NCBI GenBank assembly: GCA_964503595.1
Contig: CAZDAM010000003.1
Coordinates: 5,844-69,843 of the forward strand
From: an uncultured bacterium
GTDB lineage: Bacteria; Muiribacteriota; UBA6191
DNA length: 64,000 nucleotides
Direction of reading: 5' to 3'
The first letter of the stretch is position 1. Every line of letters begins with the position of its first letter. The translations under genes were made by a program, and so were the position numbers. A model generated the notes under the pieces. That model was not told the DNA's origin and made no database searches. It saw only the letters and a list, made by a program, of their open reading frames with translations. This document shows, one piece after another, positions 14,213-45,700 of this stretch.

Positions 14213-14224
14213 TTCGGAGACAGC

Positions 14225-15463
14225 ATGAAAAACGCCCTGACAATTTTCGGGGCCATGCTGGTCTTTCTGGGAGTTCGTTATATCAAGACTTCCAGAGGGC
14301 CGGAAATGGTTCCTCCTGTACAGAAAACAGAAGAAAATTCCTATGTAAAAATTCCATCGATTGCACCTTTGAGGGCCCGTCGCTCGGAAAGAAAACCAAA
14401 CCCTGACTGTACCCGTGCCATGCAGGTAGTAAGGATTGAGGATCCCGATCTGATCCCAGAGCGCCTTCAGACAATTCTGATTTCCAGTGGGGATTTTTCG
14501 ATTCAAAGATCCTATCCGGCAGAACTGGATTTTTTGCCCAGCAGGCTCAGGCTGATGACAGCTCGCACTGCTTTGACGGTTCTGAATCTCTTTGTGACGG
14601 ATGGAGAGGAAGTTCTAAGTGGTGATGCCCTGCTTGAAGCGGAAAGCCGCGAACTCGCGGATGCCCAGTCAGCCTGGCTGAAGGCCCAAAGAGCCCTTGA
14701 AGTCCAGAAGGAATCTCTTTTTAGAGAAGAAGAGCTGCTCAAGTCCAGTGTGGGTAATCAGAGGGATCTGAGTCAGGCCAGACGGGACTTCATTCAGACC
14801 CAGTTGAACCTGGAGATTGCCGGGCAGAAGCTGGCCTGGTTTGGCTATCAGAAAGAAGAATACGAAGAGCTTGAGAAGCGGCGAACTGTGGATGCCCGCT
14901 TTGTACTGAGGGCAGCTTCACCGGGGAGGGTTCATTCCCTTGAAGTTGTTGTGGGAACCCATGTTGAAGAAGGGCACAATCTGTTAAAAATTGCGGATTC
15001 CTCCCGCTTGAGGGCTCGCATCTGGGTGCCTGTTGGTCAGGCTGACTCCTTTCATAAAGGTCAGCGCTTTGTGGTTCAAAGCCAGAATCGTCAGACCGAA
15101 GGCAGGATTACCGCTGTGCCCTCATTTCTGGACTCCCATACACGCCAGATTGCCGTTTGGGGTGAGTTTGAGAATCAGGATTTTCTCGCCGGAGAATTTG
15201 TAACCGCCGAACTTCAGGAAGAGCTGAAAAACCGGGTTGCGGTTCCTCTTGGGGCCATTCAGTGGGATGGTTGCTGCAATCTGGTCTTTGAGAAAATCGG
15301 GGAGGGTGAATTCCAGCCCCACAAGGTTGTGCTTTATGAGCGGGGGGATTACAAGCAGGTGGTTTCCGGTCTTCAGGAAGGCATGGAAATTGTGACAGAC
15401 GGCGCTTTTGTTCTCAAATCCATTCTGATGCAGTCAGAAATGGGTGATGCCTGCTGCGGGTAG
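14225..15463 (+). CDS. Efflux RND periplasmic adaptor (membrane fusion protein, CzcB/CusB-like)
   Basis: N-terminal TM anchor, coiled-coil hairpin, beta-barrel region, C-terminal 'MQSEMGDACCG'. A 4-nt gap to the downstream CzcA-type pump. Confidence 0.75.
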   Translation: MKNALTIFGAMLVFLGVRYIKTSRGPEMVPPVQKTEENSYVKIPSIAPLRARRSERKPNPDCTRAMQVVRIEDPDLIPERLQTILISSGDFSIQRSYPAELDFLPSRLRLMTARTALTVLNLFVTDGEEVLSGDALLEAESRELADAQSAWLKAQRALEVQKESLFREEELLKSSVGNQRDLSQARRDFIQTQLNLEIAGQKLAWFGYQKEEYEELEKRRTVDARFVLRAASPGRVHSLEVVVGTHVEEGHNLLKIADSSRLRARIWVPVGQADSFHKGQRFVVQSQNRQTEGRITAVPSFLDSHTRQIAVWGEFENQDFLAGEFVTAELQEELKNRVAVPLGAIQWDGCCNLVFEKIGEGEFQPHKVVLYERGDYKQVVSGLQEGMEIVTDGAFVLKSILMQSEMGDACCG

Positions 15464-15466
15464 ATT

Positions 15467-18400
15467 ATGAAGCGCCTGATAGATTTTTCCCTGAAACAGA
15501 AAGCCGCTGTCGTCGTGATTGCTCTTCTGATTATGCTCATGGGGGTTCATTCGGCCCTGAATCTTCCTCTGGACGCCTTTCCGGATACGACACCGGTTAT
15601 GGTCCATGTCAATGCTGAGGCTGAGGGGCTTGGGCCCCTGGAAATTGAAGAGCAGATTCTAAGACCCCTCGAAAGAACCCTGCTGGCCACAGCAGGAGTT
15701 TGGGAAATCAGATCTCTGGCCCGTTTCGGCTTTGGCCAGATCATTCTGATTTTTACGGATGGCACAAAACTCATGCATGCCCGTCAGTCAGTCCTGGAGC
15801 GGTTGAATGGATTTCAACTGGTGGATGGTCTGGCTCCCCCTGAGCTTGGACCACCAGCAACTGGAATGGGCGAGGTTTTCCATTACACCTTAAGTTCTCC
15901 AATCCGGGATTTGAAGAGTCTGATGGATCTTCAGCGTTATGAGCTTGAACCCCGCTTGGCTTCTGTTTCAGGAGTCGCCGAGATCAATGCCTGGGGAGGC
16001 CTTCTGAGGCGGGCTGAAGTTCTTGTGGATCTCAAGAAACTTAGAAAATACGACCTGCGTCTGAAGGATGTCTTTGAGGCGATTCGGAGCCAGGTATCTG
16101 CCCGGGGAGGGGGTGGAATTGCTCTTGGAGGGGAATATCACCTGATCCAGGGTGATACCCGGTATCGAAAACTGGAAGACATTGAGAACGCGGTTGTGAG
16201 CACGGTTGAAGGTATTCCAGTTCTGGTTTCAGATATTGGCCAGGTGATCGACGGGCATGCCCTCAGAAGGGGGGCGGTTTCCATGAACGCAGAGGGAGAG
16301 GTATTGCTTGGACTGGGTTTCATGAGCTTCGAACAGAATGGCCGTGAAGTCAGCAGGGGGTTGGAACAGGCCCTGGAAAGTGCCCGCGATATTCTTCCGG
16401 AAGATGTGAGTACCCAGGTGATTTATTCCAGAGAAACCATCGTGAATGCGGTCTTGCAGACAGCCGGGAGCAATCTGGTTTTTGGTTCAGCTCTGGTATT
16501 TGTCGTTCTTCTGGTGTTTCTGGGAGATCTTCGTGCCGGGTTGATTGTGGCTTTGAGCATGCCCTTCTGTCTTCTGTTTGCCTTCTGTGGAATGAGGGTT
16601 ATCGGGATTCCGGGAACCCTGATGTCACTGGGGGCCATTGATTTTGGGCTGGTGGTGGACTCCAGTGTGATTCTGGTGGAAAACACCTGGCGAAGGCTCA
16701 GGGGAAAACAGGATTGCAATCGGGATGAAACTGTTTCTGAAGCTTCCATGGAAATGCGTCAGGCAACCATCTTCGGAGAGCTGATTCTGATTCTGACCTA
16801 TCTGCCCATTCTCTTTATGGCCGGGGCAGAAGGAAAGCTTTTCAGGCCCATGGCAATCACCATCATGCTGGCATTGGCGGGTTCTTTTCTGTGGTCGATC
16901 TTCATTGTCCCGGTACTTTCCTCCTGGTTTTTGAAGCCCGGGGTTCAGAAAGAAGCCCGTTTTTTGAAACCGCTCAAAATCCTTTACCTGTACTGTCTCA
17001 AGAGTCTTCTTCCCCGCAGGAAAATAGCTGTTGCCTGTGCTTTTCTTGCCCTTATCGGTGGCGGCTTTATGGCATCCCGGTTGGGAGCACGTTACCTGCC
17101 CAGACTGGAAGAAAATACTCTGGTGCTGTCTACAGTAAGAATGCCGGGAATTTCTCTTGAGGAGAATCTGGTGCAGTCGCGGGATCTGGAAGCATATCTG
17201 CTCAGGCGTTTTCCCCATGAAATTCGGGCAGTTTTAACCCGGATAGGGTCGGCCGAACTGGCTACGGATCCCATGGGTCTGGAGCAGGCCGATGTCTTTT
17301 TGGATCTTTTTGATAAAAAGCATTGGAAAAGGGCTCACTCTCAGGTAGAGCTTCAGGAGCTTGTCCGCAGTGAACTGGAGTCTTTTCCGGGCATTAAAAT
17401 CGTGATGACTCAGCCCATTGAAATGAGAATGAATGAGATGGAGGCGGGGATTCGTTCCGATGTGGGGATTCTGATCTATGGAGAAAACTTTCAGGAGTTG
17501 GCCCAAAGAGCATTGGAAGTGGAAGCTCTGGTCAAGACATTGCCGGATGCAGTGGATGTCAGCGCCGAAAAAATCACCGGTGGACCGATGGTAAGAATTC
17601 AGGCCCATCCTTCAGAGCTTGGACGTTATGGTCTGATGGGGGAAGATGTTCTGAATCTGGTGGAAGCGATCGGAGGAGTTCCGGTGAATCTTCTGATACA
17701 GGGAGAAAAGCGCTATGACGTTGTAGTTCGACTGCCTGAAGAGATGCGCCAGGATCCCGAGAAACTCGGGGGTTTGCAGTTGATGACAGAGGCTGGAGGC
17801 CAGATTCGCCTGGATGCTGTTTCTGATGTTGTCATGGAAGATGGGCCAGTGCTGATTTCCCGGGAAAGAACCCGCAGAAGAGTTGTCGTACAAGCTTCTG
17901 TAGCTCATTCGGATGTGGGCGGTTTTGTTACAAGACTCAAGGAACAGCTGGAGCGCTCCCTGGAGTGGAATACGGGGCTTTCCTTTGAGCTTGGAGGTCA
18001 GTTTCGCCATTACGAAAGTGCCCGCAGGGGATTGGTTTTCAGTATTTCCCTGACACTGATTCTGATTTTTTTTCTGCTTCAGGCCAGCACAGGAAATCTT
18101 CGGGATACCTTCTGCATCATGAGCGGGGCTCCGTTCGCTGCTCTTGGAGGTATTCTGGCCCTTTCCCTTATGAATCTTCCCTTTTCGATTTCAGCAGGAG
18201 TCGGTTTTGTGATTGTCTGCGGAGTTTCCATGCTCAATGGCCTGGTGATGATTTCCACTCTTAGAAGAAGAGAAAGGAAATTCCTGAATCGCAGCCTGAT
18301 TCTGGCGGCACTGGAACGCTTGCAGCCGGTTTTGATGACGGCTCTGGTAGCATTCTTCGGGTTTCTTCCGATGGTTTTCAGCAGTGGGATCGGTGCAGAA

Positions 18401-18511
18401 ATTCAGCGACCTCTGGCGGTAGTGGTTGCCGGTGGGGTCATTTCGGATACCTTGCTGACTCTGCTCATTTTGCCCTGTCTTCTGGGGCTTTTTCACAAGG
18501 AGGTGGAATGA
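15467..18511 (+). CDS. czcA: Heavy-metal efflux RND transporter (CzcA/CusA family, HME-RND)
   Basis: 1014 aa, 12-TM RND topology with two large periplasmic loops. HME-type conserved blocks 'AIDFGLVVDSSVILVEN' and 'GAPFAALGGILAL'. Confidence 0.8.
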   Translation: MKRLIDFSLKQKAAVVVIALLIMLMGVHSALNLPLDAFPDTTPVMVHVNAEAEGLGPLEIEEQILRPLERTLLATAGVWEIRSLARFGFGQIILIFTDGTKLMHARQSVLERLNGFQLVDGLAPPELGPPATGMGEVFHYTLSSPIRDLKSLMDLQRYELEPRLASVSGVAEINAWGGLLRRAEVLVDLKKLRKYDLRLKDVFEAIRSQVSARGGGGIALGGEYHLIQGDTRYRKLEDIENAVVSTVEGIPVLVSDIGQVIDGHALRRGAVSMNAEGEVLLGLGFMSFEQNGREVSRGLEQALESARDILPEDVSTQVIYSRETIVNAVLQTAGSNLVFGSALVFVVLLVFLGDLRAGLIVALSMPFCLLFAFCGMRVIGIPGTLMSLGAIDFGLVVDSSVILVENTWRRLRGKQDCNRDETVSEASMEMRQATIFGELILILTYLPILFMAGAEGKLFRPMAITIMLALAGSFLWSIFIVPVLSSWFLKPGVQKEARFLKPLKILYLYCLKSLLPRRKIAVACAFLALIGGGFMASRLGARYLPRLEENTLVLSTVRMPGISLEENLVQSRDLEAYLLRRFPHEIRAVLTRIGSAELATDPMGLEQADVFLDLFDKKHWKRAHSQVELQELVRSELESFPGIKIVMTQPIEMRMNEMEAGIRSDVGILIYGENFQELAQRALEVEALVKTLPDAVDVSAEKITGGPMVRIQAHPSELGRYGLMGEDVLNLVEAIGGVPVNLLIQGEKRYDVVVRLPEEMRQDPEKLGGLQLMTEAGGQIRLDAVSDVVMEDGPVLISRERTRRRVVVQASVAHSDVGGFVTRLKEQLERSLEWNTGLSFELGGQFRHYESARRGLVFSISLTLILIFFLLQASTGNLRDTFCIMSGAPFAALGGILALSLMNLPFSISAGVGFVIVCGVSMLNGLVMISTLRRRERKFLNRSLILAALERLQPVLMTALVAFFGFLPMVFSSGIGAEIQRPLAVVVAGGVISDTLLTLLILPCLLGLFHKEVE

Positions 18512-21700: not shown

Positions 21701-21728
21701 TTGACATCTGGGAATTGGGTCTTAGGAT
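21701..21728 (+). promoter_or_regulatory. Putative promoter of the S1 protease gene
   Basis: TTGACA at 21701-21706, 16-nt spacer, TAGGAT. RBS ggaaagga upstream of the ATG at 21758. Confidence 0.3.
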
Positions 21729-21757
21729 TTCGGGAAATTCTAGGAAAGGATTACCTG

Positions 21758-22624
21758 ATGCGTAAACTTGCTGTGTCTTTGATGGTGGCTTTCTCTGCCG
21801 CTGTTCCTTCTTTTGCTGATTCGGAAGCTCTTGCTCCTACACTTGAAGGCTCTCTGCGCCATAGTGGGGCAATTTCCCGCATGAACCGTATTGTCGGCGG
21901 TGTCGAAGCCCAAAAGGGAGAATGGCCTTTTATCGTAGGTCTGATCCAGAAAGGCAAGCCCACTTATGATGGTCAGTTCTGTGGCGGCTCCCTGATTGCT
22001 CCCCAATGGGTTCTGACTGCTGCCCACTGTGTAAAAAGTGGCAACAACACGGCAAGTCCCCGTTCCATGGAAGTCTATCTGAATGGTCATGATTTGACCG
22101 ACGATTCTTCCGGATACCGGGTGAATGTGTCCAAGGTCATTCCGCATTCCCGCTACAATGAGAACAATATGGACAATGATATTGCTCTTCTGAAGCTGTC
22201 CCGCCCGGTGACGGATGTCACTCCTGCTCCTATTCTGGAAAGAGGCAGCCGCCTGGACGCTCCTCCTTATGTTTCCCGGGTCATGGGCTGGGGCAATATG
22301 AAGGAACAGGGCAGCAACTTCCCGGCGAAGCTTCAGAAAGTCGATGTGCCTTTTGTCGATCGCCAGACCTGTGATCGGGCGATTGGGAATCTGGTGAACC
22401 AATCCGGAATCATCAGTGCCAATATGCTTTGTGCCGGTTTTTCCCAGGGTGGCAAAGATAGCTGCCAGGGCGATTCCGGAGGTCCACTGGCAGTTCAGGA
22501 TGGCAACACCTGGAAACAGGCTGGGGTTGTCAGCTGGGGAATCGGCTGTGCCCGCCCGAATGCCTATGGAGTTTACACCCGTGTGCAGAACTATCACGGC
22601 TGGATAGAATCCCAGATGCGCTGA
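21758..22624 (+). CDS. Secreted trypsin-like serine protease (chymotrypsin fold, S1A) with zymogen-type propeptide
   Basis: Signal peptide, 'NR|IVGGVEA' activation junction, 'CGGSLIAPQWVLTAAHC' (His57), 'DIALLKLS' (Asp102), 'DSCQGDSGGPL' (Asp189 and Ser195). Confidence 0.85.
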   Translation: MRKLAVSLMVAFSAAVPSFADSEALAPTLEGSLRHSGAISRMNRIVGGVEAQKGEWPFIVGLIQKGKPTYDGQFCGGSLIAPQWVLTAAHCVKSGNNTASPRSMEVYLNGHDLTDDSSGYRVNVSKVIPHSRYNENNMDNDIALLKLSRPVTDVTPAPILERGSRLDAPPYVSRVMGWGNMKEQGSNFPAKLQKVDVPFVDRQTCDRAIGNLVNQSGIISANMLCAGFSQGGKDSCQGDSGGPLAVQDGNTWKQAGVVSWGIGCARPNAYGVYTRVQNYHGWIESQMR

Positions 22625-35791: not shown

Positions 35792-37753
35792 CTACCTCAA
35801 ACTGAAAGACATCATCTCGTTCAGGCTGAAGTCACGGTTGAGAACGCGCAGGCGGATGGAAGAAGTGCGGCTTTCAATCCGGCGCTGAATGAGATGCATG
35901 ATCAGGCGGGAGAGGCGGTTTCCCCAGGGGGTTTTGCAGGACCTGTGCAGGAAGTTCTGCAGAAACTGGGGGCAGTGTTTACGAAACAGGTCATCTTCAA
36001 GGCTTAGAACCAGTTTGACGCTTCCGGGCTGACCCTGGCGTGAAGTCCTTCCATAAAGCTGAAGATCAATCCGGCAGGATTCATATTTCTGGGTGGCCAC
36101 GACATGAAGTCCGCCAAGTTCCTCGACCTCGCGATCCACATGAATATCGGTACCCCGGCCCGCCATATTCGTGGCAATCGTAATGCCGCCGAGTTCTCCG
36201 GCCTTTGCCACAATCTGGGCTTCCTCTTCATGCTTCAGGGCATTTAAGATTGTGCAGGAGAGATCGGAGGCGGCGAGTTCATTGGCCAGCCATTCGCTTT
36301 CTTCTACGGAACGGGTTCCGACAAGAACGGGCTGGTTTTTGCGATGGACTTCGCGAATATGCTTGAGGATGAAGGACCATTTCTCATCAAGGGTGGCGCA
36401 GACGGTGACAGGTTCAAACTCGTAGGTCCGGGGAATGCGCTTGGGGATTTTCATGGTAGGCAGACGGTAGATCTGCCACAGTTCTTCCTGAAGATTCTGA
36501 AGGGTTCCGCTCATGCCTGAGAGGCGCTTGTACAGGCGGAAGTAGCGCTGAAAACTCATGCGGGTATGGGTTTCGGTTGGATCTGATAATTCGAGTTCTT
36601 CCTTGGCTTCAATGGCCTGATGAAGGCCTGAGCCCCAGTTGCGGTGTTCCATGATCCGGCCTGTTGCTTCATCGACAATCACGACTTTGCCTTCTTCATC
36701 AATCAGATACTGCTGGTTGAGGTGATAGAACTCACGGGCAGCCAGGGCCTGATGCACCAGAAACTGGCGTCTTTCCTTGGCTTTCCACATGGCGGGAAGG
36801 GGTCGTACCAGTTCATCCACAAAGCTTTCACCAGCTGGAGTCAGGCGAATGTCCTGGAATTTACGGTTGACGGTGTAGTGTTTGTCGGGTCGCATCTTGC
36901 GGGCGATTTCACAGGCAATCTGGCTGGCTTCCTTGAGAAGTTCGTTTTCTGAGGGGATGGAAATGATCAGCGGGGTGGTGGCCTCATCGGCCAGAACGCT
37001 GTCAGCCTCATCAATGATGGCGGTGTGAAGGCCGCGCATGACCATGGGTTTTGGGGGTCTTCCCTGAAGATTCCGGATTAGAGAACGGTCCCAGTCCAGA
37101 TCCTCCTGGCCCATCCGATCCCGTAGAAAGTCGGCCAGAAGCTCTTTGCTGGTGGTATAGACAATATCGCGGGAATAGGCTTCCTTTCTTTCCCGGGGGC
37201 TCATGGAGCCCGTAACAGAGGCTCCTCTTAGCTGGCAAAGAGAAAACAGGGGCTGCATGAGTTCGGCATCGCGGGAAGCCAGGTAATCATTTGAGGTGAC
37301 AACATGACAGGGAAGGCCGCTCCAGCCTGCCAGAACCGCCGTGATGCCGGCGACGATGGTTTTTCCTTCTCCCGGTTTCATTTCGATCAGGTAGCCATCA
37401 AACTGGGCCAGCACTCCCATGAGCTGAACTGGGTAGGGGCGCATTCCAAGAGAGCGAAAGGATGCTTCGGCCACCAGAGCCAGGGAGTCGGCCAGATTCT
37501 GTTCTTCCGGATTGGGATTTCCACGAAAGATCTTGCGCGCCGATCTGATTTTTTCCTGAAGCTCTTCGGGGGACAGATGGGCATGCTGAAGGGAAATCTG
37601 GTGGATGGCTTCGGCTTTTTTGCGAAAAACCCGCGGGCTTTTGCGCAGGCGGTGGATCAGGCGGAAAAAGGAATGAACCCAGGCATCAAGGCCCTCATAG
37701 GACTTTTTTTCCCTTGGGACGTGAAAGCGCTGGAATTCGGCGGAAAGATCCAT
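35792..37753 (-). CDS. SecA-like translocase ATPase paralog (motor domains only, lacks SecA C-terminal scaffold/wing/CTD)
   Basis: 'MKPGEGKT' Walker A, 'VVTSNDYLASRD', 'IIDEADSVLADEATTPLIIS', 'ATNMAGRGTDI' and 'GGLHVVATQKYESCRIDLQLYGRTSRQGQPGS...SLEDDLFR' are all canonical SecA blocks. Only 653 aa. Confidence 0.8.
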   Translation of the reverse strand: MDLSAEFQRFHVPREKKSYEGLDAWVHSFFRLIHRLRKSPRVFRKKAEAIHQISLQHAHLSPEELQEKIRSARKIFRGNPNPEEQNLADSLALVAEASFRSLGMRPYPVQLMGVLAQFDGYLIEMKPGEGKTIVAGITAVLAGWSGLPCHVVTSNDYLASRDAELMQPLFSLCQLRGASVTGSMSPRERKEAYSRDIVYTTSKELLADFLRDRMGQEDLDWDRSLIRNLQGRPPKPMVMRGLHTAIIDEADSVLADEATTPLIISIPSENELLKEASQIACEIARKMRPDKHYTVNRKFQDIRLTPAGESFVDELVRPLPAMWKAKERRQFLVHQALAAREFYHLNQQYLIDEEGKVVIVDEATGRIMEHRNWGSGLHQAIEAKEELELSDPTETHTRMSFQRYFRLYKRLSGMSGTLQNLQEELWQIYRLPTMKIPKRIPRTYEFEPVTVCATLDEKWSFILKHIREVHRKNQPVLVGTRSVEESEWLANELAASDLSCTILNALKHEEEAQIVAKAGELGGITIATNMAGRGTDIHVDREVEELGGLHVVATQKYESCRIDLQLYGRTSRQGQPGSVKLVLSLEDDLFRKHCPQFLQNFLHRSCKTPWGNRLSRLIMHLIQRRIESRTSSIRLRVLNRDFSLNEMMSFSLR

Positions 37754-37757
37754 TTCG

Positions 37758-39902
37758 TCAGAATTGGTAGCGCTTCTGAAGAAGCTGTTTCAGAAAGAGC
37801 ATGAATTGACCCATCACGGAGGAATCCGCCAGCTCGATACGGATTTCCCCGGTGCGCCCGTGCAGGGTTTTGAGGTTCTCGTGAGGATGGAAGACGGCCC
37901 TGGCTTCAAAGAAGGATTCCTGGGTCTTGAGCCCGTCTTCTCTTTCCACGGCAATATCACCGCCACCGTACCAGCCCAGAGCCATGGAGGGAAGTTCATC
38001 CTTTTCATGGGGAATAACAGTAAACTGGGTGACGGGCAGGGTGATTTCGGACTGCCCCCTGAATTTGAGGCTGGCCTGGGGCTCTTTGAGTTCGAACAGG
38101 TCGTAGGCGTTTTCCTGGGAAACAACGGCCACGAATTCAAGATCCTGAGACGGAAGGATGGCCCCGAGTTCGGCTCCAGCCTTGGCCCAGGTGCCGAGGT
38201 AGCGACGTAGATCCGGGGCAATCCAGGTGCCATTGGTTTTGGCCCGCACGGTAAGTTTGTCCCTGCGATCCTTTAGAAGATCCAGCTTGCGGCCGAGAAA
38301 GGCAATGCGTTCGGAGATGGGCTTCAAATCGGCAACCCGGTTTTCGCGGGCCTTGATTTCAAGCGCTTTGGATTCCTGAATCTGGGCCCCTACCAGCAGA
38401 ATTTCCACGTCCAGATCCGGGTTTTCCAGGCGGGCCAGAATCTGATCCGTCTGAACCACGCTGCCACTGGGGGCAATGATTTCCTTAAGAATACCGGGGG
38501 TCTGATTGTGGATGCGGGTGTAGTCACGAGCATGGATAACACCGGGAGCCCGGATGGAATTGGACATGGGGACATAGAAGAGGAGTCCGATCAGAAGGGA
38601 GATGGTCAGAATGGCGAGGCTTACGGCCCTGAGCCGGACCATTTCCAGGGCCGGATCAAAAAACAGGTAATGTATGAGGTTGTAAACAGGCTTGAGGAGC
38701 CAGGTCCAGGCGGAGATGGCCACGATGATCAGACCGACTTCAAACCACTGGTCCAGAACAAACAGGGCAATCCCGGCAGAAAGCAGAACCCGGTACGCCT
38801 GGGAGGCGAAGCCATAGGAAAGGAGCCAGAAGGACTCGGTGGCACTTGAGGCGGCTCTTTCGATATCCGGCATTCCCAGGATTTTACTTTCCAGAATATA
38901 GCGCCATTCCTCGCGGGATCTCTGGGCCAGATTCGGAATTTCGAGAACATCAGAGAGGATGTAATAGGAATCCAGACGGGTCAGGGGATTTCCATTGAAA
39001 AGAAGGCTTGAAACGGAACCGATGAACATCAGGTTGAAGGCCAGGCTGTTGATGACTCCGGGGCCGGTATGAGACCAGACAATCGTGGCCAGAGCAGCAA
39101 TGAAGAGTTCGACAATCATGCCGGCGGCACCAACCAGGGCTCTTTGCCAGCGGTTTCGGAAGGCCCAGCTTGAAGTGGCATCCATATAGGGCAGGGGAGT
39201 CAGAATCAGAAACATGACCCCCATGGTGTGAACTTCCCCCCCGAAGCGGCGGGTAGCCATGGCATGACCCATTTCATGCAAAAACTTCAGTCCGGCCAGA
39301 CAGATGTAAAGCAGAAAGATATTGGATGGGGCAAGGACTCCCTGGCCACTCTGATAAAGGGCCTGGGGGTTTTCCAGGGCGTACCAGAACCCGGTGAAAA
39401 CCACTAGGGCCCAAACCAGAAACCCTCCCCTGGAGAAAATCATTCTGGTGACATTGTCGTAGCGGACAAGCCAGGTGTGGGGATCCCACAGGGGCATGCG
39501 AAAGAACAGGAAGGACTGGATCTTGCTGGTCAGCTCCTTCTGTTTGGTGCGGGAATAGCGCTCAAAAACGGCCTCTGTATCCGGGGAGTTTTCCACATAA
39601 AGCAGGTTTGAGAGATGAAGCTGGGAGAGGAGACGGATGACGGCGTCCTGGGATGGGGTGTCATCCGGGTTTTCCCGGAGGGATTCTTCCCAGAGATCAT
39701 GCACGGTGGATTTGGGGTTCAGGCGCATGACAAAGCGGTAGGCCTCAGGAGAGAGGCGAAAAAAGCGGGAATTGAAGGGGTCTCTTAAGACGTAGCACAT
39801 TTCCCCACGAAAGAACTGTTTGTGGCTTTGGATGGCGCTGTGAATTCCGGCCCGAAGTTCGGCAACCCGATACCAGGATTCACTGAATAGATTCCCGATC
39901 AT
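37758..39902 (-). CDS. Fusion protein: polytopic M50 (site-2-protease-like) zinc metalloprotease domain plus C-terminal HlyD-like periplasmic adaptor
   Basis: 'HEMGHAM' HExxH sits inside a hydrophobic segment with multiple TMs. The C-terminal 300 aa has biotin-lipoyl-like 'VQTDQILARLENPDLDVEIL', a coiled coil and a beta-barrel. A 4-nt gap to the neighbouring genes. Confidence 0.7.
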   Translation of the reverse strand: MIGNLFSESWYRVAELRAGIHSAIQSHKQFFRGEMCYVLRDPFNSRFFRLSPEAYRFVMRLNPKSTVHDLWEESLRENPDDTPSQDAVIRLLSQLHLSNLLYVENSPDTEAVFERYSRTKQKELTSKIQSFLFFRMPLWDPHTWLVRYDNVTRMIFSRGGFLVWALVVFTGFWYALENPQALYQSGQGVLAPSNIFLLYICLAGLKFLHEMGHAMATRRFGGEVHTMGVMFLILTPLPYMDATSSWAFRNRWQRALVGAAGMIVELFIAALATIVWSHTGPGVINSLAFNLMFIGSVSSLLFNGNPLTRLDSYYILSDVLEIPNLAQRSREEWRYILESKILGMPDIERAASSATESFWLLSYGFASQAYRVLLSAGIALFVLDQWFEVGLIIVAISAWTWLLKPVYNLIHYLFFDPALEMVRLRAVSLAILTISLLIGLLFYVPMSNSIRAPGVIHARDYTRIHNQTPGILKEIIAPSGSVVQTDQILARLENPDLDVEILLVGAQIQESKALEIKARENRVADLKPISERIAFLGRKLDLLKDRRDKLTVRAKTNGTWIAPDLRRYLGTWAKAGAELGAILPSQDLEFVAVVSQENAYDLFELKEPQASLKFRGQSEITLPVTQFTVIPHEKDELPSMALGWYGGGDIAVEREDGLKTQESFFEARAVFHPHENLKTLHGRTGEIRIELADSSVMGQFMLFLKQLLQKRYQF

Positions 39903-39905
39903 GTT

Positions 39906-41753
39906 CTACCACCAGAGGTACAGACGCATGGTGTCCGTAATGCGGTGAAACAGAATCCAGCCGACACTGCGTCTTCCGGCCTTGATGCGGGCCAGGCCGC
40001 TCATGCCGGGTCGCCACCAGCTTTCCGGGCTCTCTACGAACCGGGCCTTCAGTTCGAAGGTGTTCCCGCTTCTGGGGTCTACTCTGGCAACAGGGACCAG
40101 GGTTTCGATTTCAAAGGGGTATTTCATCTGGGGATTGCTCAGAAGAGCCATTTCTCCCTGTCCGGGAACGGTAATCTCATCAATATCTCTTTCGGGAACC
40201 TTCAGGATGAGATACATGGCCTCAGGCTGGGCAATCTGGTACAGAAGATCGCCTTTGTTGATGGGGGCGCCCATCAGCTTTTCCTTTTCCCCCTCAACAA
40301 TGACTCCATCCTGAGGGGCCTTGAGATCGGCCCTGTTCAGGTAGAACCGGACCCGTTCCAGCTCGGCTTTGGCCTGAGCCAGACGGGCTTCGGAGATATT
40401 CATGTCTGCGAGTCGGCCATCGGCACGGGCCTTCTGGGTTTCCCTCTCATAGCGGGTGACTTCGGCCTGGGCTTCGGTGATTTTGAGATGGATTTCCTCG
40501 GTGTCGATCTGAATCAGGGTCTGGCCTTTGGTGACGGTATCCCCGCTATGGGCCAGTACATTCAGAATCACTCCGTCCATGGGGGAGGAAATGTAGGAAA
40601 TCAGATCGGTTTTGAGTTCGGCTCCGACTTCCACATCATAGTCCCAGGTGCCAAAAGTCAGAAACAGAACAGAGGCGAATCCAATCAGGGCCAGGAGCTT
40701 GGCAAAGGAGTTCTCCGGGCCCAGAAGCCACTGAACCTTGTCCTTCAGATAGTTTTTGAGGCGCTCGCCAGCCCATTGATCGTCGGCATGAAGGCGGGCC
40801 AGAACCGGGGCGCTTTGATTGGCAATCAGTCTCAAGGCCATGATTTCCTGGGGGTGGAACCGGCTTGAGGCCTTTTCAATGGTCAGAACTCCGGCGGGCT
40901 CATCCCTGAATCTTAGGGGGAGGCTGATCACCTGAAAGGCACCGCACTGGGACAGAAACTGCTGGTGGGCAGTCTGAATGGTTCCGGGATCCTCATGTCC
41001 GGGGCAGAGGATCTCTTCGTTCTGATCCAGGCTCTCTTCCATGGCATTGGCCAGACGGACACAGGCTTCGGTCTGGGAGTCAAAGCGCTCGAGATGGCTG
41101 ATGGCCTGAATTTTGATATAGGGGTTCTCATGCCAGCCAAGGCTGACCCGGGATACCTGAAACCGGGAGCAGAGATCGTTGACCAGGCTCATGGAGGCCA
41201 GCTGAAACCGCTCGGCCTTCAGAAGCTGGCTGATGACTTCAAGGGAAGAACCGATCATGCCCTGTTCGCGGGTTTCCCCTGTGTCAGGCAGATTTTCCTC
41301 ACTGATCATGGCCAGCAGTCTGGTGCGGATCAGGAGCTCATTCAGGGCTCTTGAGGGCAGGGGGCCCAGAGCCAGAATGATCAGGTGAGGGGTCTGGGAA
41401 CGTTGAGTTTCGTAGGCGATCACGTTCTGAAGTTCGGGAACTTCGGTGCGGATTTTTTCCAGGGCACAGCCTTTTTCCCTCACCCTGGGCAGCATATCCC
41501 GTCCCGATTCGGCGAGCTGTTCCATGAGGGAATTGGCGTGTTCCTTCGGGTTGAATACGGCATCGACCTGAATCTGCTCTGGGCCGGGAGAAAGAATCAG
41601 TCCGGTGTCAGCGCTACAGATTCCACATACGATTCGCAGATAATCGGACCAGAATGCCTCACTTTTTGGCATCTGGCGCAGGGTTTGAAGTTCTGAAAAA
41701 TACTGGGTCTGGTTCATGGGGAACTCGATTCTTCCGGTTCCGAATTTTCTCAT
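39906..41753 (-). CDS. HlyD-family membrane fusion protein with a roughly 330-aa cytoplasmic N-terminal (GAF-like?) domain
   Basis: Single TM 'LLALIGFASVLFLTFGTW'. Then 'GDTVTKGQTLIQIDTEEIHLKITEAQAEV' lipoyl-like, a coiled coil, and a C-terminal beta-barrel 'ARIKAGRRSVGWILF'. Confidence 0.65.
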   Translation of the reverse strand: MRKFGTGRIEFPMNQTQYFSELQTLRQMPKSEAFWSDYLRIVCGICSADTGLILSPGPEQIQVDAVFNPKEHANSLMEQLAESGRDMLPRVREKGCALEKIRTEVPELQNVIAYETQRSQTPHLIILALGPLPSRALNELLIRTRLLAMISEENLPDTGETREQGMIGSSLEVISQLLKAERFQLASMSLVNDLCSRFQVSRVSLGWHENPYIKIQAISHLERFDSQTEACVRLANAMEESLDQNEEILCPGHEDPGTIQTAHQQFLSQCGAFQVISLPLRFRDEPAGVLTIEKASSRFHPQEIMALRLIANQSAPVLARLHADDQWAGERLKNYLKDKVQWLLGPENSFAKLLALIGFASVLFLTFGTWDYDVEVGAELKTDLISYISSPMDGVILNVLAHSGDTVTKGQTLIQIDTEEIHLKITEAQAEVTRYERETQKARADGRLADMNISEARLAQAKAELERVRFYLNRADLKAPQDGVIVEGEKEKLMGAPINKGDLLYQIAQPEAMYLILKVPERDIDEITVPGQGEMALLSNPQMKYPFEIETLVPVARVDPRSGNTFELKARFVESPESWWRPGMSGLARIKAGRRSVGWILFHRITDTMRLYLWW

Positions 41754-41910
41754 GGATATCCGGATTTGACCAGTTTCGCTTTATCGATTCATAAAGTTCA
41801 TTTAAGGTATTGAAAATAGATCATTTCTATTCTTACGTATGGTAGAATTGTCCCCTGAATTTGCCGATTTTTCAGGTGTTAGAGATAAATTTAGGTAGTA
41901 CAGGAGTCCT

Positions 41911-42660
41911 ATGTTTAAAAAGATTGTGCCGATCACTAAAGATGCCCATAAGAAAACAAAGATCAAAGCGTTGGCAAATTTCGAGTTTGCGAAGGACGTC
42001 AACCTTGCGGCCGTGATGGTCCATGAGTTTTCCCGTGCGGCAGCGACTTACCCGATTGTGTTTCTGGAAGACAAGGAAAAGGACCAGTTCCGTCCTACGG
42101 TTCTTCTGGGCCTTGAGCAGGGCGAAAACCTGTTTGTGAAGGAAGGAAAGTGGGAGGCTTCGTACATCCCGGCCATCATCCGCCGCTATCCTTTTGCCCT
42201 GGCAAATACAAACGAAGCGGATAAGTACACAATCTGCCTCGATGAAGGCAGCGATCTGGTTAATGATAAAGACGGCCAGGAGCTTTTCGACGGCAAGGGC
42301 GAACCAAGTGAGCTGATGGAGCGCGTGAAGCGCTATCTGGGCGAGCTTCAGCAGATGGAGCGTTTCACTCAGGAGTTCTGTGCAGCGATGTCCCATCTGA
42401 ACATGTTCACTCCCCTGAATATGAAAGTGCGCCTTGGCAATGAAATCAAAAACATCAATGGGGCCTATGTCATCAATGAAGAGCGCCTGGGCTCTCTTTC
42501 GGATGAAAAATTCATCGAGCTTCGCAAGAAGCAATACATTCCGGTGATTTACTCCCACCTGAGCAGTCTGTCCCAGATTGAGCGTCTTCTGACCTTCAAG
42601 GACAAGAAGGGTGGAGTGACTCCAGATGCCATCGAACAGTTCTCGGAGACCGTGAATTGA
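41911..42660 (+). CDS. SapC family protein
   Basis: About 250 aa with 'YPIVFL' and 'PAIIRRYPF' blocks, which I recognise as the SapC family (named from the Campylobacter fetus S-layer secretion locus). Divergent from the HlyD/SecA-like operon. Confidence 0.6.
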   Translation: MFKKIVPITKDAHKKTKIKALANFEFAKDVNLAAVMVHEFSRAAATYPIVFLEDKEKDQFRPTVLLGLEQGENLFVKEGKWEASYIPAIIRRYPFALANTNEADKYTICLDEGSDLVNDKDGQELFDGKGEPSELMERVKRYLGELQQMERFTQEFCAAMSHLNMFTPLNMKVRLGNEIKNINGAYVINEERLGSLSDEKFIELRKKQYIPVIYSHLSSLSQIERLLTFKDKKGGVTPDAIEQFSETVN

Positions 42661-42680
42661 GTTTGGTTCTCTTCTGTATC

Positions 42681-42739
42681 CCTCCGCCGTGCCAGGCGGA
42701 GGAATGAAAACAATCGGGATTCCGCTACAGGTGTAGCGG
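42681..42739 (+). other. Two tandem GC-rich hairpins between sapC and the giant gene (possible attenuator/terminator)
   Basis: cctccgcc-gtgcca-ggcggagg (8-bp stem) and ccgctac-aggt-gtagcgg (7-bp stem) followed by a T-rich tract. Confidence 0.4.
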
Positions 42740-42788
42740 GGTCCCTTTGGTGTTTCTTGGCAATTTTCGAAAAACGCAGGAAAAACTT

Positions 42789-45700
42789 ATGAGCTCAAAA
42801 ATGAAAAGCCTTGTCAGAACCCAGACCTACATGAAAGCACGCCGCTTTTTTCAGAAATTTACGAAGAAGAAGGAGGCCGCTCCTCAGGTGCTTGATGGCA
42901 GACGGGAACGCTTCCGTCTGGACAGCCTTGAAGAGAGAGTTCTGCTTTCAGCAGATCCGGTTACGGAGACGGCTCATGCGATTTTGCACGAACCTCAGAA
43001 GAACGAGTCCCGAATTGAGCTTTTAAGTGAGGCTTCCCTGCGTCAGCCTACCCTAAGCCTTCAGGAACAGCACCCTCAGGCCGCAATTGTTCTGGATGCC
43101 GGCACGCTTTCCCAGAACAGAAATTCCCTGGAATCCTCCCTTGTGATCGGCGAGAACGAAGTTCTTGGCGGCAGTGGAAATCTGGGCATTCACCTGATGA
43201 ATGATGGCACCGTTGCTCCCGGATATTCTCCCGGAGTTCAGAATGTAGCCAGCTTCACCCAGGCCGAAGGTGCGACCCTTGAAATCGAAATCGGGGGCAG
43301 TGGGGTTGCCGGGGCCTCCGATGGTTTTGATCAGCTCAATGTCTCCGGTCTGGCAAGCCTTGGTGGCAAGCTTGAAGTCACCCTTCTGAATGACTACAAA
43401 CCTCAGGTCGGAGACACTTTCGACATCCTTACCTTTGGCTCGGTGAGCGGAGAATTTGATTCGGTAGGCGGTCTTTACGGATTTTATGCAGATTATTACT
43501 TCGATGTGGTGCAAAAATCCGATCGCATTCAGCTGGTCGTCAAGGAGCTTTTGCCCGGAGATACCTTCGAGATTGCCGCTGACGAGGCCTTTCGAGATGC
43601 CATGTCGGAGTTTCTGGCTCAGGATTATCTCAAGAAGCCGACTTCCATTACCTTTACCGGCTCCATTGATCTTGGAGATGCCTTTTCGGTTGGAGGCACC
43701 TTTACCCTGAATCAGGTCAGCACCGGTCAGGATGTCACTTTAAGTGATGGGTCCACAGTCAATGTTTCGATCAAGACTCTGGGGATGCGGGGCGCTTCAG
43801 CTTCTTTGGGTGGAAGCTTCGGCCTTCAGTTCGGCGGAGCTGATCTGGGAATTGCCATTTTTGATGCAACTTCCGAAGAAGATGGCCGCAGTTGGGTTGG
43901 AGCCCAGGGAAGTCTGGAAAGCGTTTCTCTTTTGAATCTTGGAAGCTACGGCATCCAGGGAGAAAACCTTCAGCTTGACATCTTCCAGGCCCTGGGAGAA
44001 GACAATGATGTTTTAATCGATTTGTCGGAAACCCCGTTGAGTATTTCTGATGGCAGTGGAACACTGGCTGAATTCTCCAATGACGGAGTTTTTGGGGAGT
44101 ATCTGAACGTGGCTGGAAATCTCCAGCTCACCATGCCTTTTTTGAATGTCTCCGGAGATTTCTTTGTCTCCGCGGATGATGCCTCCCTGTTTCTGGCCGG
44201 AGAAAATGTCACCGCTAGCTTTGAAGCCGGAGGCATGACTCTGGGTGTAAACAATGCCCGCTTTGGGGCCTACATTTTTGAAGATCAGAGCATGGTTCTG
44301 GAAGCAACCGGTGGCCTTGTCATGAGTGGAGGCGATTTCACGCTTCCTACTGGCGATTCTGTGAGCCTCAAATACAACACCACTGGCATCGAATTCACCG
44401 ATCTGGAAATGGCGATTGGGGAGAGATCCTTCACTTTTGGAACCATCGAAGCTTCCGAAGAACTCCTGGAATTGAGCATCAGTGGCTTTGAAGCCAACCT
44501 GGGCGGAGTGTTCGGGCTGTCCGGAGACTTCGGTTTCCGCAAAAACGGGGAAGATCTGAATGTGGTGGCTCAGAATGCTGCCGTAAGCCTGAATGCTGGC
44601 GGCTTCAAGGCTGGAGTGAAAGACGCCACCCTGGGTCTGAAAATGAGCGATCTGGGAACCGCCATGGAAGCAACCGGCGCGGCCTGGTTTGAGCTTGGAG
44701 ATGCAGTTTCCCTGAGTGCTGACAGTGTCCAGGTGCTCTATAACGAAACCGGAGAAGACCTGATTGGAACCAGTCTCTCGGCTGCTTCTCTGGAATATAC
44801 CTTTACAGCAATTGAGGGTTCGACGACCCTTCAGCAAGTGGCTGTAAGTGGGGCCAGCCTGGAAGTGGCCGGCTTTGTGCAGGCCAGCGGTAATCTTGCC
44901 GTCAAGCGGGATGAAGTTGCTCTGGAGCTTTCGGATGAGTCCCTGGTTCTGGCCGAGCTTTTGACCATTGGTGGCAAGAATGTAAGCGCCTTTGCCGGCC
45001 TGAATGGTGGCTCTTCCTCCGCTTTGGGCCTTCAGATCAGCGCCCTGACTTTCGGGGTCGCCCTGATGAGCGAAATCGATGGTGAGGAGAGAAGCTGGAC
45101 AGCCGTCTACGGGGAAGCCGAATCCGCCGGATTTGTCGGTCCAGACAGCCTCACGATTTCTGCCAGTGCCCTGAAACTCGAACTGAATCTGGCCTCAGAA
45201 GACGGCCTGGTAGTGGATTTCTCGGAATTCAGTCACAGCGTTCCCGTTGGTGTGGGCGAAAGCCTCAGCCTTACGATGGACGCTCAGCGGGGCGAACTGA
45301 TCAGTGTCAGTGGCAACCTGAACATCCGCATCTTTGATTTCTTCGCCGTCTCCGGAGGCTTTGCCCTGGAAAAATCCACAGAAACTCTGAGGCTTTCGGA
45401 TGAAAGCGAAGTGGAAGTGGAGCTTCTGACTCTGGGAACCCAGGGAGTCTCGGCTTTTGCCGGTCTGAATCATGGCAGTGACAATGCCTTTGGTTTCTCT
45501 TTGGGAGATGTGAGCCTGGCTTTGGTCATGGCCACAGAAAAAGAGGATTCCTCCCAGTCCTATGTGAGCCTGAAAGCTCAGGCTGGCAGCGTAGCCTTTG
45601 AAGGAATCCCCGGAATCACCATTGCCGCAGATACCCTGGCCGTGGAACTGAACCTGGCATCAACAGAAGGTCTTTTGGTGGACTACTCCACCAAAGCCCT

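Follow-up and report, generated by a model that had tools for sequence, protein, structure and literature searches.

A SecA-like ATPase, an M50-HlyD fusion and a GAF-HlyD adaptor as the candidate core of an ABC-independent export machine for giant LEPR-XLL proteins

How surface proteins of 10,000-36,000 aa, including those of the Chlorochromatium symbiosis, leave the cell is a question that the locus considered here raises in a particular form: what do a SecA-like ATPase and two HlyD-type adaptors, one of them fused to an M50 protease domain, do next to the gene of a giant protein? The initial annotation of the window (the whole stretch of DNA analysed, 64 kb) had seen in them a dedicated export or maturation module for the adjacent giant rather than a canonical ABC-dependent type I secretion system (T1SS), a view that is upheld by the collinearity of these genes in other genomes, by a leader in 19 of 21 neighbouring giants and by the near absence of ABC genes. 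As judged from sequence comparison and structure prediction, the trio probably forms, at the inner membrane and in the cytoplasm, the core of a type-I-like secretion machine that works independently of ABC transporters, with the adjacent giant LEPR-XLL protein as its putative cargo.

The three genes were recovered from the ORF list exactly where they had been proposed to lie, tightly packed on the minus strand with gaps of 3 and 4 nt, and they are transcribed divergently from sapC and the giant gene. The features of the locus are:

35792-37753, minus strand: SecA-like ATPase gene, 653 aa
37758-39902, minus strand: M50-HlyD fusion gene, 714 aa
38970-38996, minus strand: NGNPLTRLD, aa 303-311 of M50-HlyD, site-2-protease NxxPxxxLD motif with the third zinc ligand
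39264-39278, minus strand: HEMGH, aa 209-213 of M50-HlyD, zinc-binding/catalytic HExxH motif of the M50 domain, invariant in 21 homologues
39603-39851, minus strand: candidate PqqD/RRE-like beta3-alpha3 subdomain, aa 18-100 of M50-HlyD, from predicted secondary structure and PF05402
39906-41753, minus strand: GAF-HlyD gene, 615 aa
41754-41910: divergent intergenic region between the trio and sapC, 157 bp
41911-42660, plus strand: sapC, 249 aa, product cytoplasmic, no transmembrane (TM) helix
42716-42745, plus strand: terminator-like hairpin between sapC and the giant gene, 13-bp stem with 8 G-C pairs and a T-rich tail
42789-64000, plus strand: giant gene, 5' part, at least 7070 codons, no stop up to the window end
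42912-42980, plus strand: LEPR-XLL leader motif (NF012209), giant aa 42-64, FRLDSLEERVLLSADP...

Profile searches on the three proteins, suggested as a check in the initial annotation, returned GAF and HlyD, Peptidase_M50 with an adaptor, and SecA_DEAD with SecA_PP_bind, respectively. The SecA-like protein comprises NBD1, the preprotein cross-linking domain (PPXD) and NBD2, and ends early in the scaffold helix (SecA_DEAD, 278 bits; SecA_PP_bind, 82; P-loop_SecA, 170); the domain search returned no wing/scaffold domain, and a TM helix is absent. Its alignment with Bacillus subtilis SecA spans residues 21-607 of 841 (376 bits), in agreement with its earlier description as a SecA paralog truncated after NBD2. 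With SecA and SecA2 it shares the NBD1-PPXD-NBD2 order and the full set of ATPase motifs (Walker A GEGKT, aa 128-132; Walker B IDEADS, aa 247-252; TNMAGRGTDI; GRTSRQGQPG), but it is truncated, is unlinked to secY2 or asp genes and falls below the cutoffs of the NCBIfam SecA equivalog (NF009538; 522 bits against 814) and of every SecA2 model. By stopping at approximately residue 607 in B. subtilis numbering, it lacks the wing domain, the two-helix finger and the C-terminal tail. The wing domain and the two-helix finger are the parts coupling SecA to SecY, so that the SecA-like protein would act on the polytopic M50 domain rather than on SecYEG.

The M50-HlyD fusion is formed by a cytoplasmic N-domain (aa 1-150), approximately six TM helices (aa 154-444) and a periplasmic adaptor (aa 445-714) with a lipoyl domain, an alpha-hairpin (aa 495-548) and a beta-barrel. 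That an HlyD adaptor is joined here to a polytopic, HExxH-containing M50/site-2-protease-like domain, as first read from the sequence, is borne out by a Peptidase_M50 match above cutoff (33.4 bits; cutoff 27.2), by zinc motifs placed inside TM helices, and by an RND_mfp-like C-terminus; in an AF2 model (pLDDT 79) the C-terminal adaptor matches MacA (E 7e-12), MexA and AcrA. Residues H209, E210, H213, N303, N305, P306, L307 and D311 are invariant in the 21 homologues, and the catalytic motifs are, at the level of sequence, intact. The N-domain appears to resemble PqqD/RRE and may be a leader-peptide binding element: its predicted secondary structure agrees with the beta3-alpha3 winged-helix PqqD fold, and PF05402 matches 14 of 21 N-domains of the family at E<=1 (best E 4e-6; Vreelandella copy, 8e-4), the match to the window's own N-domain being sub-threshold (13.2 bits, cutoff 23.4, E 0.12). 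A search of the N-domain profile against PDB sequences returned only noise.

The best NCBIfam match of the M50 part of the fusion is the daptide HExxH intramembrane protease (NF041824; 155.5 bits, cutoff 300), YydH/LiaK also being matched below their family cutoffs, and its family bears the JGI name 'putative peptide zinc metalloprotease'. With the membrane proteases that process the leaders of RiPPs, and with RRE, it has in common a polytopic HExxH protein, a putative PqqD-like beta3-alpha3 domain at the N-terminus and, in its cargo, an N-terminal leader that is conserved; it differs from them in being far below cutoff, in the attached periplasmic adaptor and in a putative substrate of more than 7000 aa instead of a peptide. 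The second HlyD adaptor, for which a sensor domain had been proposed, matches GAF (31 bits), HlyD_D23 and HlyD_3, and weakly, far below cutoff, the NHLP bacteriocin HlyD family of NCBIfam. It consists of a cytoplasmic N-region with the GAF domain (aa 190-315), a single TM helix (aa 350-368) and a periplasmic HlyD adaptor (aa 369-615), its length being 615 aa by ORF and 603 aa in the NCBI/ENA gene call. The HlyD parts of both proteins are true periplasmic adaptors with an alpha-hairpin.

The putative cargo had been labelled a giant LEPR-XLL/RTX adhesin, and the first half of this label holds, the region of aa 42-64 scoring 25.5 bits against NF012209 (cutoff 17). The RTX adhesin part was set aside as weakly founded: the visible 7070 aa contain a single sub-threshold HemolysinCabind match (22.9 bits, cutoff 23), four GGxGxD motifs and no adhesin domain. 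In this visible part there are no cysteines, D+E amount to 13.4% vs 6.0% for K+R, and neither TM segments nor BLAST-level internal repeats were found, with almost no Pfam signal; the composition fits a substrate that is exported unfolded via a TolC-type duct. A lysine/arginine-rich stretch precedes the leader, and the N-terminus has neither a hydrophobic signal-peptide core nor a Sec signal.

In other genomes the same genes recur as a cassette that normally counts five members, namely an outer-membrane factor (OEP/TolC), a small HlyD, GAF-HlyD, M50-HlyD and the SecA-like ATPase. Among species-representative genomes, at least 581 stretches from more than 10 phyla carry the family, and this gene order is collinear in Desulfobacterota, Campylobacterota, Cloacimonadota, Verrucomicrobiota and others, and likewise in Gamma- and Betaproteobacteria, Spirochaetota, Planctomycetota and Chlorobi. 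Among 83 non-redundant loci from other genomes, the trio is found in 71 and the complete set of five in 49. In 31 of the 83, the cassette is flanked by an open frame (1000 aa or more) that continues past the edge of the locus; of the 34 loci extending 4 kb or more to either side, 24 have such a frame and about 10 have no giant ORF within 10 kb. Called giant products beside cassettes include proteins of 13,222, 8,208, 9,829 and 16,191 aa. 

The leader, F-x-LE-x-LEPR-x-LLS, is present in 19 of the 21 cassette-adjacent giant ORFs with a visible N-terminus (the exceptions being those of L008 and L043) and in none of about 35 other long ORFs. In 13 loci the gene directly preceding OEP is sapC, and sapC also directly precedes the giant gene in the window, in L086 and in Arcobacter roscoffensis. 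On the co-occurrence of trio, SapC and LEPR-XLL proteins, which the initial annotation had proposed to look for, other genomes show collinear genes in the 83 loci, a shared leader and a recurrent SapC. In several cassette-linked giants the extreme C-terminus is conserved as well (FEYWIEDVVF-like), with no NCBIfam family matched in the upstream giants; it could be a T1SS-style C-terminal signal, and export may run in either direction.

Where a giant gene ends beside the cassette (L001, L005, L026, L030, L034, L055 and L061), the order is [SapC]-OEP-small HlyD-GAF-HlyD-M50-HlyD-SecA-like. An outer-membrane factor after the giant gene, together with an ABC transporter and with no co-conservation of the trio, had been named in advance as speaking against a dedicated module; in these relatives, taken as a proxy for the window, the outer-membrane factor comes without an ABC transporter. 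An ABC ATPase ORF lies near the cassette in only 4 of 86 sequences, that of the window being MsbA-like. The implied lack of a TolC partner did not stand, as OEP and a further, small HlyD (the third adaptor) are usual members of the family that simply do not adjoin the trio here. No OEP/TolC or small-HlyD homologue and no T1SS-type ABC gene were found across the full 64-kb window; the window's copy may therefore be incomplete, and this genome would have to encode OEP and small HlyD in another place, perhaps after the giant gene. The closest relative, L086, has the same divergent layout, with an AAA_35 ATPase instead of the SecA-like protein after M50-HlyD, which suggests that the motor may be exchangeable or dispensable.

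The module had been put forward as undescribed, wrongly so, because it was published in 2015 by Kamneva, Poudel & Ward (PLoS One 10:e0129066; PMC4452313), who described it by comparative genomics, with META1p2399-2402 of Methylobacterium extorquens AM1 as an example, and proposed the SecA-like protein as the ATPase and the M50 protein as the membrane pore, its role being 'completely unknown'. Their loci, too, combine in one operon a SecA_DEAD paralog devoid of wing and scaffold, a Peptidase_M50-like protein with HlyD and a GAF-HlyD, and the same architecture-level hypothesis, with HlyD and OEP as the conduit, was reached. They differ in having a separate short HlyD and, in some loci, an OEP, which are not near the window's trio, although system components can be encoded elsewhere according to the same study, whose reanalysis of M. 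extorquens arrays found only the GAF gene to be expressed in exponential phase. PMC4452313 identifies no substrate, and SapC, giant proteins and a PqqD-like domain do not appear in it; the links of the cassette to these three are made in the present analysis and are new. No experimental follow-up of the 2015 module was found in the literature, nor did the literature on LEPR-XLL and on SecA-like proteins with giants and TolC yield a description of a cargo link.

Partial counterparts are known. In Chlorobium chlorochromatii, the SapC-giant-TolC locus Cag_662-665 (bioRxiv 10.64898/2026.03.19.712371) has sapC immediately upstream of the giant gene, as in the window, and in Omnitrophota a SecA_DEAD+PPXD module without scaffold and wing is tied to giants as well, but fused inside the giant proteins themselves (West-Roberts et al. 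2023, bioRxiv 10.1101/2023.11.21.568195); in neither study are the giants connected to the M50-HlyD/GAF-HlyD/SecA-like cassette. Canonical T1SS (HlyBD-TolC; LapBCE) are similar in their periplasmic alpha-hairpin adaptors, in the TolC-family duct seen in relatives of the cassette, and in a giant, acidic, cysteine-free cargo without a Sec signal peptide. The cassette departs from them by the absence of an ABC transporter, by a motor derived from SecA, by two to three distinct adaptors (one M50-fused, one GAF-fused) and by a cargo with a conserved N-terminal leader that is not RTX-rich in its visible 7070 aa.

A mechanism that would accommodate these observations begins in the cytoplasm, where the leader would be captured by the PqqD/RRE-like N-domain of M50-HlyD and/or the PPXD of the SecA-like protein. 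The latter would then feed the unfolded, cysteine-free, acidic giant chain into the M50 domain, which would cleave the LEPR-XLL leader, while the M50-HlyD and GAF-HlyD adaptors (with the small HlyD in relatives) would build a periplasmic tunnel to the TolC-family duct, and a small ligand, sensed by the cytoplasmic GAF domain, would control the gating. An M50 fold is not known to serve as a protein-conducting channel, and support for the roles of the cassette members is comparative or predicted throughout. More tentatively, and with somewhat less than even confidence, the motor derived from SecA, the RRE-M50 protease-adaptor, two further adaptors (one with GAF, one small) and a TolC-family duct may constitute a distinct secretion class, exporting proteins of 7,000 to more than 16,000 aa by leader recognition and cleavage, possibly N-terminus first and co-translationally, with SapC as a dedicated accessory.

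Among other explanations, the cassette could be a processing, retention or release device, the giant leaving through an ABC-type T1SS encoded elsewhere by means of a C-terminal signal, and the M50 domain cutting the LEPR-XLL region under GAF control for release or anchoring, by analogy with LapG/LapD acting on LapA-type adhesins. The acidic-aromatic C-terminus common to several giants, their T1SS-like composition and the intact M50 residues would suit such a device, as would the name-giving SapC of Campylobacter fetus, encoded with the ABC-type T1SS sapDEF (Thompson et al. 1998, as cited in PMC2938197). However, an outer-membrane factor and three adaptors are parts of a conduit rather than of a protease switch, an ABC gene is absent beside the cassette in 82 of 86 sequences, and the model has no use for a full SecA-type ATPase that includes a domain for binding preproteins, which makes this reading unlikely. 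Export in two steps, the SecA-like protein serving as an accessory SecA2 that drives the giant through SecYEG before adaptors and TolC carry it across the outer membrane, would agree with the strong SecA homology, PPXD included, and with the 2015 phylogeny, which sets the clade beside actinobacterial SecA2 (PMC4452313); it is rendered improbable by the missing wing, two-helix finger and most of the scaffold that engage SecY, by a substrate leader devoid of a hydrophobic core, by scores below all SecA/SecA2 equivalog cutoffs, and by a gene that always shares an operon with its own set of membrane proteins.

The daptide protease (155 bits), YydH/LiaK and NHLP matches, the PqqD/RRE-like N-domain and the JGI family name could also point to export and maturation of a small leader-bearing peptide of RiPP or bacteriocin type, adjacency to giants being incidental. 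All such matches nevertheless fall far short of the family cutoffs, the neighbours in which a leader was seen are giants (19 of 21), and the densely spaced cassette genes showed no recurrent small ORF on non-systematic inspection; a peptide cargo thus appears quite improbable. The lack of any OEP or small-HlyD homologue in the 64-kb window could mark the window's copy as a non-functional remnant. Against this, none of the three ORFs is disrupted and their catalytic and ATPase motifs are kept, the closest relative shares the divergent layout, a split SapC-giant-TolC arrangement exists elsewhere, e.g. in Chl. chlorochromatii, and TolC genes are often unlinked; we regard a remnant as very improbable.

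If the preferred reading of an ABC-independent exporter is correct, Gram-negative bacteria of more than 10 phyla have a secretion route in which a SecA-derived motor and a membrane protease replace the T1SS ABC transporter, and which would serve the largest proteins bacteria make. It would also give a functional context to the NCBIfam LEPR-XLL motif, to the SapC family and to the family named 'putative peptide zinc metalloprotease', which has more than 5600 database matches. The leader of the neighbouring giants turns the orphan gene-neighbourhood observation of 2015 into a directly testable hypothesis, and cultured carriers include Vreelandella aquamarina, Pseudomaricurvus alkylphenolicus, Oceanospirillum sanctuarii, Thiomicrospira microaerophila and M. 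extorquens.

Other genes of the window were considered and set aside. Its sole ABC exporter (3923-5680, MsbA-like) lies 30 kb from the trio in an LpxI-LpxB-ABC-LpxB-LpxL lipid A cluster, where the following 389-aa ORF, considered as its partner in a T1SS ABC/MFP pair, is the second LpxB. The RND genes at 14225-18511, 20 kb distant, form an ordinary AcrAB-type pair. Between the trio and sapC, a convincing sigma-70 consensus site was sought in the 157-bp region and not found. SapC itself matches PF07277 at 245.9 bits, above the gathering score, over profile positions 2-220 of 220, and is 61-79% identical to homologues of other phyla; it is proposed, from these comparisons, to be a cytoplasmic accessory, highly conserved and linked to the giant gene at its 5' end. 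The sapC-giant intergenic RNA (141 nt), which contains the terminator-like hairpin, folds at -55.8 kcal/mol (z = -4.3).

The three open reading frames (ORFs) that the initial annotation had assigned to the minus strand of the window were all found exactly where it had placed them, and each of its domain calls was confirmed by Pfam and NCBIfam. The gaps within the trio are of 3 and 4 nt, and a 157-bp intergenic region separates it from the divergently transcribed sapC.

Genes of the locus (window positions, strand, description)
39906-41753, minus: GAF-HlyD, ORF of 615 aa
37758-39902, minus: M50-HlyD, ORF of 714 aa
35792-37753, minus: SecA-like, ORF of 653 aa
41911-42660, plus: sapC, divergent from the trio
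ATG at 42789 to the window end, plus: giant gene, at least 7070 codons, stop-free

GAF-HlyD combines a GAF domain with HlyD_D23/HlyD_3; M50-HlyD matches Peptidase_M50 with 33.4 bits (cutoff 27.2) and ends in an RND_mfp-like region; the SecA-like protein matches SecA_DEAD (278 bits), SecA_PP_bind (82 bits) and P-loop_SecA (170 bits), and SapC its own family with 246 bits. Hydropathy analysis reveals no transmembrane (TM) helix in either of the latter two proteins.

The trio had been taken for an undescribed module, which it is not: the locus is a split-layout member of a cassette described computationally and never characterised experimentally. Truncated SecA-like proteins without the wing-scaffold domain were reported in 2015, together with neighbouring genes for Peptidase_M50/HlyD, GAF/HlyD and HlyD proteins and, sometimes, an outer-membrane factor (OEP), and it was proposed that the SecA-like protein supplies the ATPase activity and the M50 protein the membrane component, the broader biological role of the module being called ‘completely unknown’ (Kamneva, Poudel & Ward, PMC4452313). 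That report, which lessens the novelty of the module, makes no mention of a substrate, giant proteins, SapC or PqqD, and no later paper carrying the system further was found in the literature searched. Two preprints contain adjacent facts, the connection to the cassette not being made in either, namely the presence of SecA_DEAD and preprotein cross-linking domain (PPXD) modules without wing/scaffold inside giant proteins of Omnitrophota (bioRxiv 10.1101/2023.11.21.568195), and a SapC-giant-TolC locus in Chlorobium chlorochromatii (bioRxiv 10.64898/2026.03.19.712371). With respect to the same literature, the links to a cargo and to SapC and the domain resembling a leader-recognition element (RRE) appear to be new.

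The M50-HlyD fusion family is very large, with more than 5600 database matches, the best 120 of which are all full-length (704-719 aa), and with at least 581 encoding stretches among genomes sampled at one per GTDB species. When four diverse contigs were examined by gene calling and 83 non-redundant loci by tblastn, a collinear five-gene order emerged: OEP, a small HlyD (approx. 270 aa), GAF-HlyD, M50-HlyD and SecA-like. The trio is present in 71 of the 83 loci and the complete set of five in 49; contig ends truncate most of the rest. Carriers belong to Gamma- and Betaproteobacteria, Desulfobacterota, Campylobacterota, Verrucomicrobiota, Planctomycetota, Spirochaetota, Chlorobi, Bacteroidota, Elusimicrobiota, Fibrobacterota, Methylomirabilota and Cloacimonadota, and include the cultured Vreelandella aquamarina QJJ-865 (complete chromosome, NZ_CP085210.1, with the locus at approx. 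1.409-1.426 Mb), Pseudomaricurvus alkylphenolicus, Oceanospirillum sanctuarii, Thiomicrospira microaerophila and Pseudacidovorax intermedius. The window copy is atypical because the first two genes, OEP and small HlyD, are missing. Its closest relative, L086 (ENA ERZ27315062 k141_1874799), has the same divergent layout, with M50-HlyD and GAF-HlyD on one side and SapC and a 9829-aa giant on the other. After M50-HlyD, L086 encodes a 507-aa AAA_35 (PF14516) ATPase (344-1867, minus) in place of the SecA-like protein, which may reflect a swap of the motor or, given that the contig stops shortly afterwards, a SecA-like gene located elsewhere. In the Desulfobacteraceae Eth-SRB1 locus (L001), an 849-aa ORF without a Pfam match directly follows the SecA-like gene (14144-16693, plus), and may be an extra, lineage-specific component.

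The SecA-like protein aligns to residues 21-607 of the 841 of Bacillus subtilis SecA, and retains intact Walker A (GEGKT), Walker B (IDEADS) and TNMAGRGTDI motifs, the arginine-finger segment GRTSRQGQPG and the PPXD. It terminates early in the scaffold helix and therefore has none of the parts by which canonical SecA engages SecY: wing domain, two-helix finger and C-terminal tail.

M50-HlyD, as judged from hydropathy, consists of a 150-residue cytoplasmic domain, approximately six TM helices and a periplasmic adaptor. The site-2-protease zinc-site motifs H209-E210-x-x-H213 and N303-x-x-P306-x-x-x-x-D311 are invariant on alignment of 21 homologues at 42-53% identity and, for this reason, the protease is probably active. 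In the AlphaFold2 model (pLDDT 79), a lipoyl domain, a hairpin of two helices (495-520 and 527-548) and a beta-barrel make up residues 445-714, as is typical of adaptors; for this region Foldseek returned MacA (E 7e-12), MexA and AcrA. The cytoplasmic N-domain has a predicted order of three or four beta-strands and then three helices. PqqD (PF05402) matches 14 of the 21 N-domains of the family over almost the whole profile (best E 4e-6), and each of the other Pfam families at most three; the score is only 13 bits for the window copy and 20 bits for that of Vreelandella. The domain is read here as a candidate RRE-like element for leader-peptide binding. GAF-HlyD is built of approximately 350 cytoplasmic residues, one TM helix and, then, a periplasmic adaptor (hydropathy).

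What the cassette may serve is indicated by its neighbours. Beside the cassette, a reading frame of 1000 aa or more stays open to the edge of the locus in 31 of 83 loci, and in 24 of the 34 that have 4 kb or more on each side; called giant products beside the cassette or SapC include proteins of 13,222, 8,208, 9,829 and 16,191 aa. Among the 21 neighbouring giants whose N-terminus falls within the fetched DNA, 19 carry, after a basic stretch, the leader F-x-L-E-x-L-E-P-R-[VLI]-L-L-S-[AG]-D, which begins 12-55 residues past the start codon where the latter is confidently placed, and which is found in none of the approximately 35 other long ORFs of the loci. The cargo rule therefore has exceptions, namely an Elusimicrobia giant with a classical signal peptide (L008 9441-12944) and one of an uncultured Chlorobiaceae with a different conserved N-terminal region (L043 11713-15138). 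SapC is 61-79% identical across phyla, the other components 40-53%. In 13 loci its gene immediately precedes OEP, and it immediately precedes the giant gene in the window, in L086, in Arcobacter roscoffensis and, likewise, in Chlorobium chlorochromatii. SapC goes with the giant gene's 5' end rather than with the cassette, because in the complete genome of the cultured A. roscoffensis (L087 10001-20747; CP100595.1, 1.168-1.179 Mb) sapC immediately precedes the gene call of 16,191 aa, with no cassette upstream.

In the giant of the window, residues 42-64 match the LEPR-XLL family (NF012209; 25.5 bits, cutoff 17) and the N-terminus has no hydrophobic core by hydropathy. Its visible part, of at least 7070 aa, contains neither TM segments nor BLAST-level internal repeats and no cysteine, with 13.4% D+E versus 6.0% K+R, a composition that fits unfolded export through a TolC-type duct. 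The label of RTX adhesin is poorly founded, the sole Pfam match being one sub-threshold HemolysinCabind, with four GGxGxD motifs. At the other terminus, seven giants of related loci whose genes stop shortly before the cassette have in common the extreme C-terminal sequence [FVY]-[ED]-[YWD]-[WY]-x-[ED]-x3-[FL]-COOH, an acidic-aromatic motif of the form FEYW(I/T)E(D/N)xx(F/L) and variants (e.g. FEYWIEDVVF), often preceded by (I/M)PTFG. No NCBIfam family matched this motif, a possible C-terminal signal for secretion or docking.

Giants with the C-terminal motif (locus, end of the giant)
L001: ...5226
L005: ...4719
L026: ...3742
L061: ...2944
L030: ...6858
L034: ...3213
L055: ...3480

In the light of the domains, topology and motifs, of the synteny with an outer-membrane factor and three adaptors, of the absence of ABC genes and of the leader conserved on neighbouring giants, the best-supported model, which we regard as somewhat likely to be correct, is that the cassette exports LEPR-XLL giant proteins as its dedicated cargo, working as a type-I-like system independent of ABC transporters. 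The initial interpretation survives in this part, namely an exporter lacking an ABC transporter with the LEPR-XLL giant as cargo, and is not supported in the claims of novelty and of an RTX adhesin. The RRE-like domain, the PPXD or both would capture the leader, ATP would drive the threading of the cargo either through the M50 membrane domain or alongside it, the M50 site would cleave the leader, and the adaptors would assemble onto the outer-membrane factor, with the GAF domain possibly gating the machine. Conservation of both termini of the giants bears on the direction of transport. If validated, the system would be a distinct class of secretion system, and the link to the cargo makes the exporter hypothesis directly testable.

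Among the alternatives, a processing or release device of the LapG/LapD type, working for a type I system encoded elsewhere, would also accommodate a probably active protease, and is unlikely in our estimate; only four of 86 sequences have an ABC ATPase ORF near the cassette. The giant gene of the window runs past its end, and related loci serve as a proxy for the region downstream, where a canonical pair of ABC transporter and outer-membrane factor would have counted against the initial interpretation: in those loci in which the giant gene stops next to the cassette, it is followed by an outer-membrane factor and no ABC transporter. A SecA2-like two-step route via SecYEG is rather improbable. 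The ATPase motifs and the PPXD are common to SecA, SecA2 and the SecA-like protein, whereas the wing, two-helix finger and tail are absent from the latter, which reaches none of the NCBIfam equivalog cutoffs for SecA or SecA2 (522 versus 814 bits). Even less credence is given to a RiPP-type peptide exporter, with which the PqqD resemblance would agree and for which the adjacency of leader-bearing giants would be incidental. That the trio is a non-functional remnant in this genome, its two missing genes being set beside its intact ATPase motifs, is the most doubtful reading.

Elsewhere in the window, a lipid A cluster (1962-7850), whose genes overlap by a few bases, comprises LpxI (1962-2789), two LpxB paralogs (2790-3926 and 5671-6840) and a lipid A acyltransferase (6804-7850), and these genes show that the host is diderm. 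The LpxB genes flank the sole ABC exporter of the window (3923-5680), which is MsbA-like and internal to this LpxI-LpxB-ABC-LpxB-LpxL arrangement. An AcrA/AcrB-type RND pair (14225-18511, plus; adaptor of 412 aa, pump of 1014 aa), with no adjoining outer-membrane factor gene, is unrelated to the trio; no OEP/TolC gene is found anywhere in the 64-kb window, despite two systems (the trio and the RND pair) needing one. A 307-aa protein (21701-22624, plus) matches the chymotrypsin-type Trypsin family (PF00089) with 222 bits, a strength uncommon for a bacterial protein. Finally, the 128-nt spacer between sapC and the giant gene (42661-42788) is highly structured (MFE -55.8 kcal/mol, z = -4.3), with hairpins at 42681-42702 and 42716-42745; one structure in it resembles a terminator, with a 13-bp hairpin and a T-rich tail, and may curb read-through into the giant gene by attenuation or partial termination.
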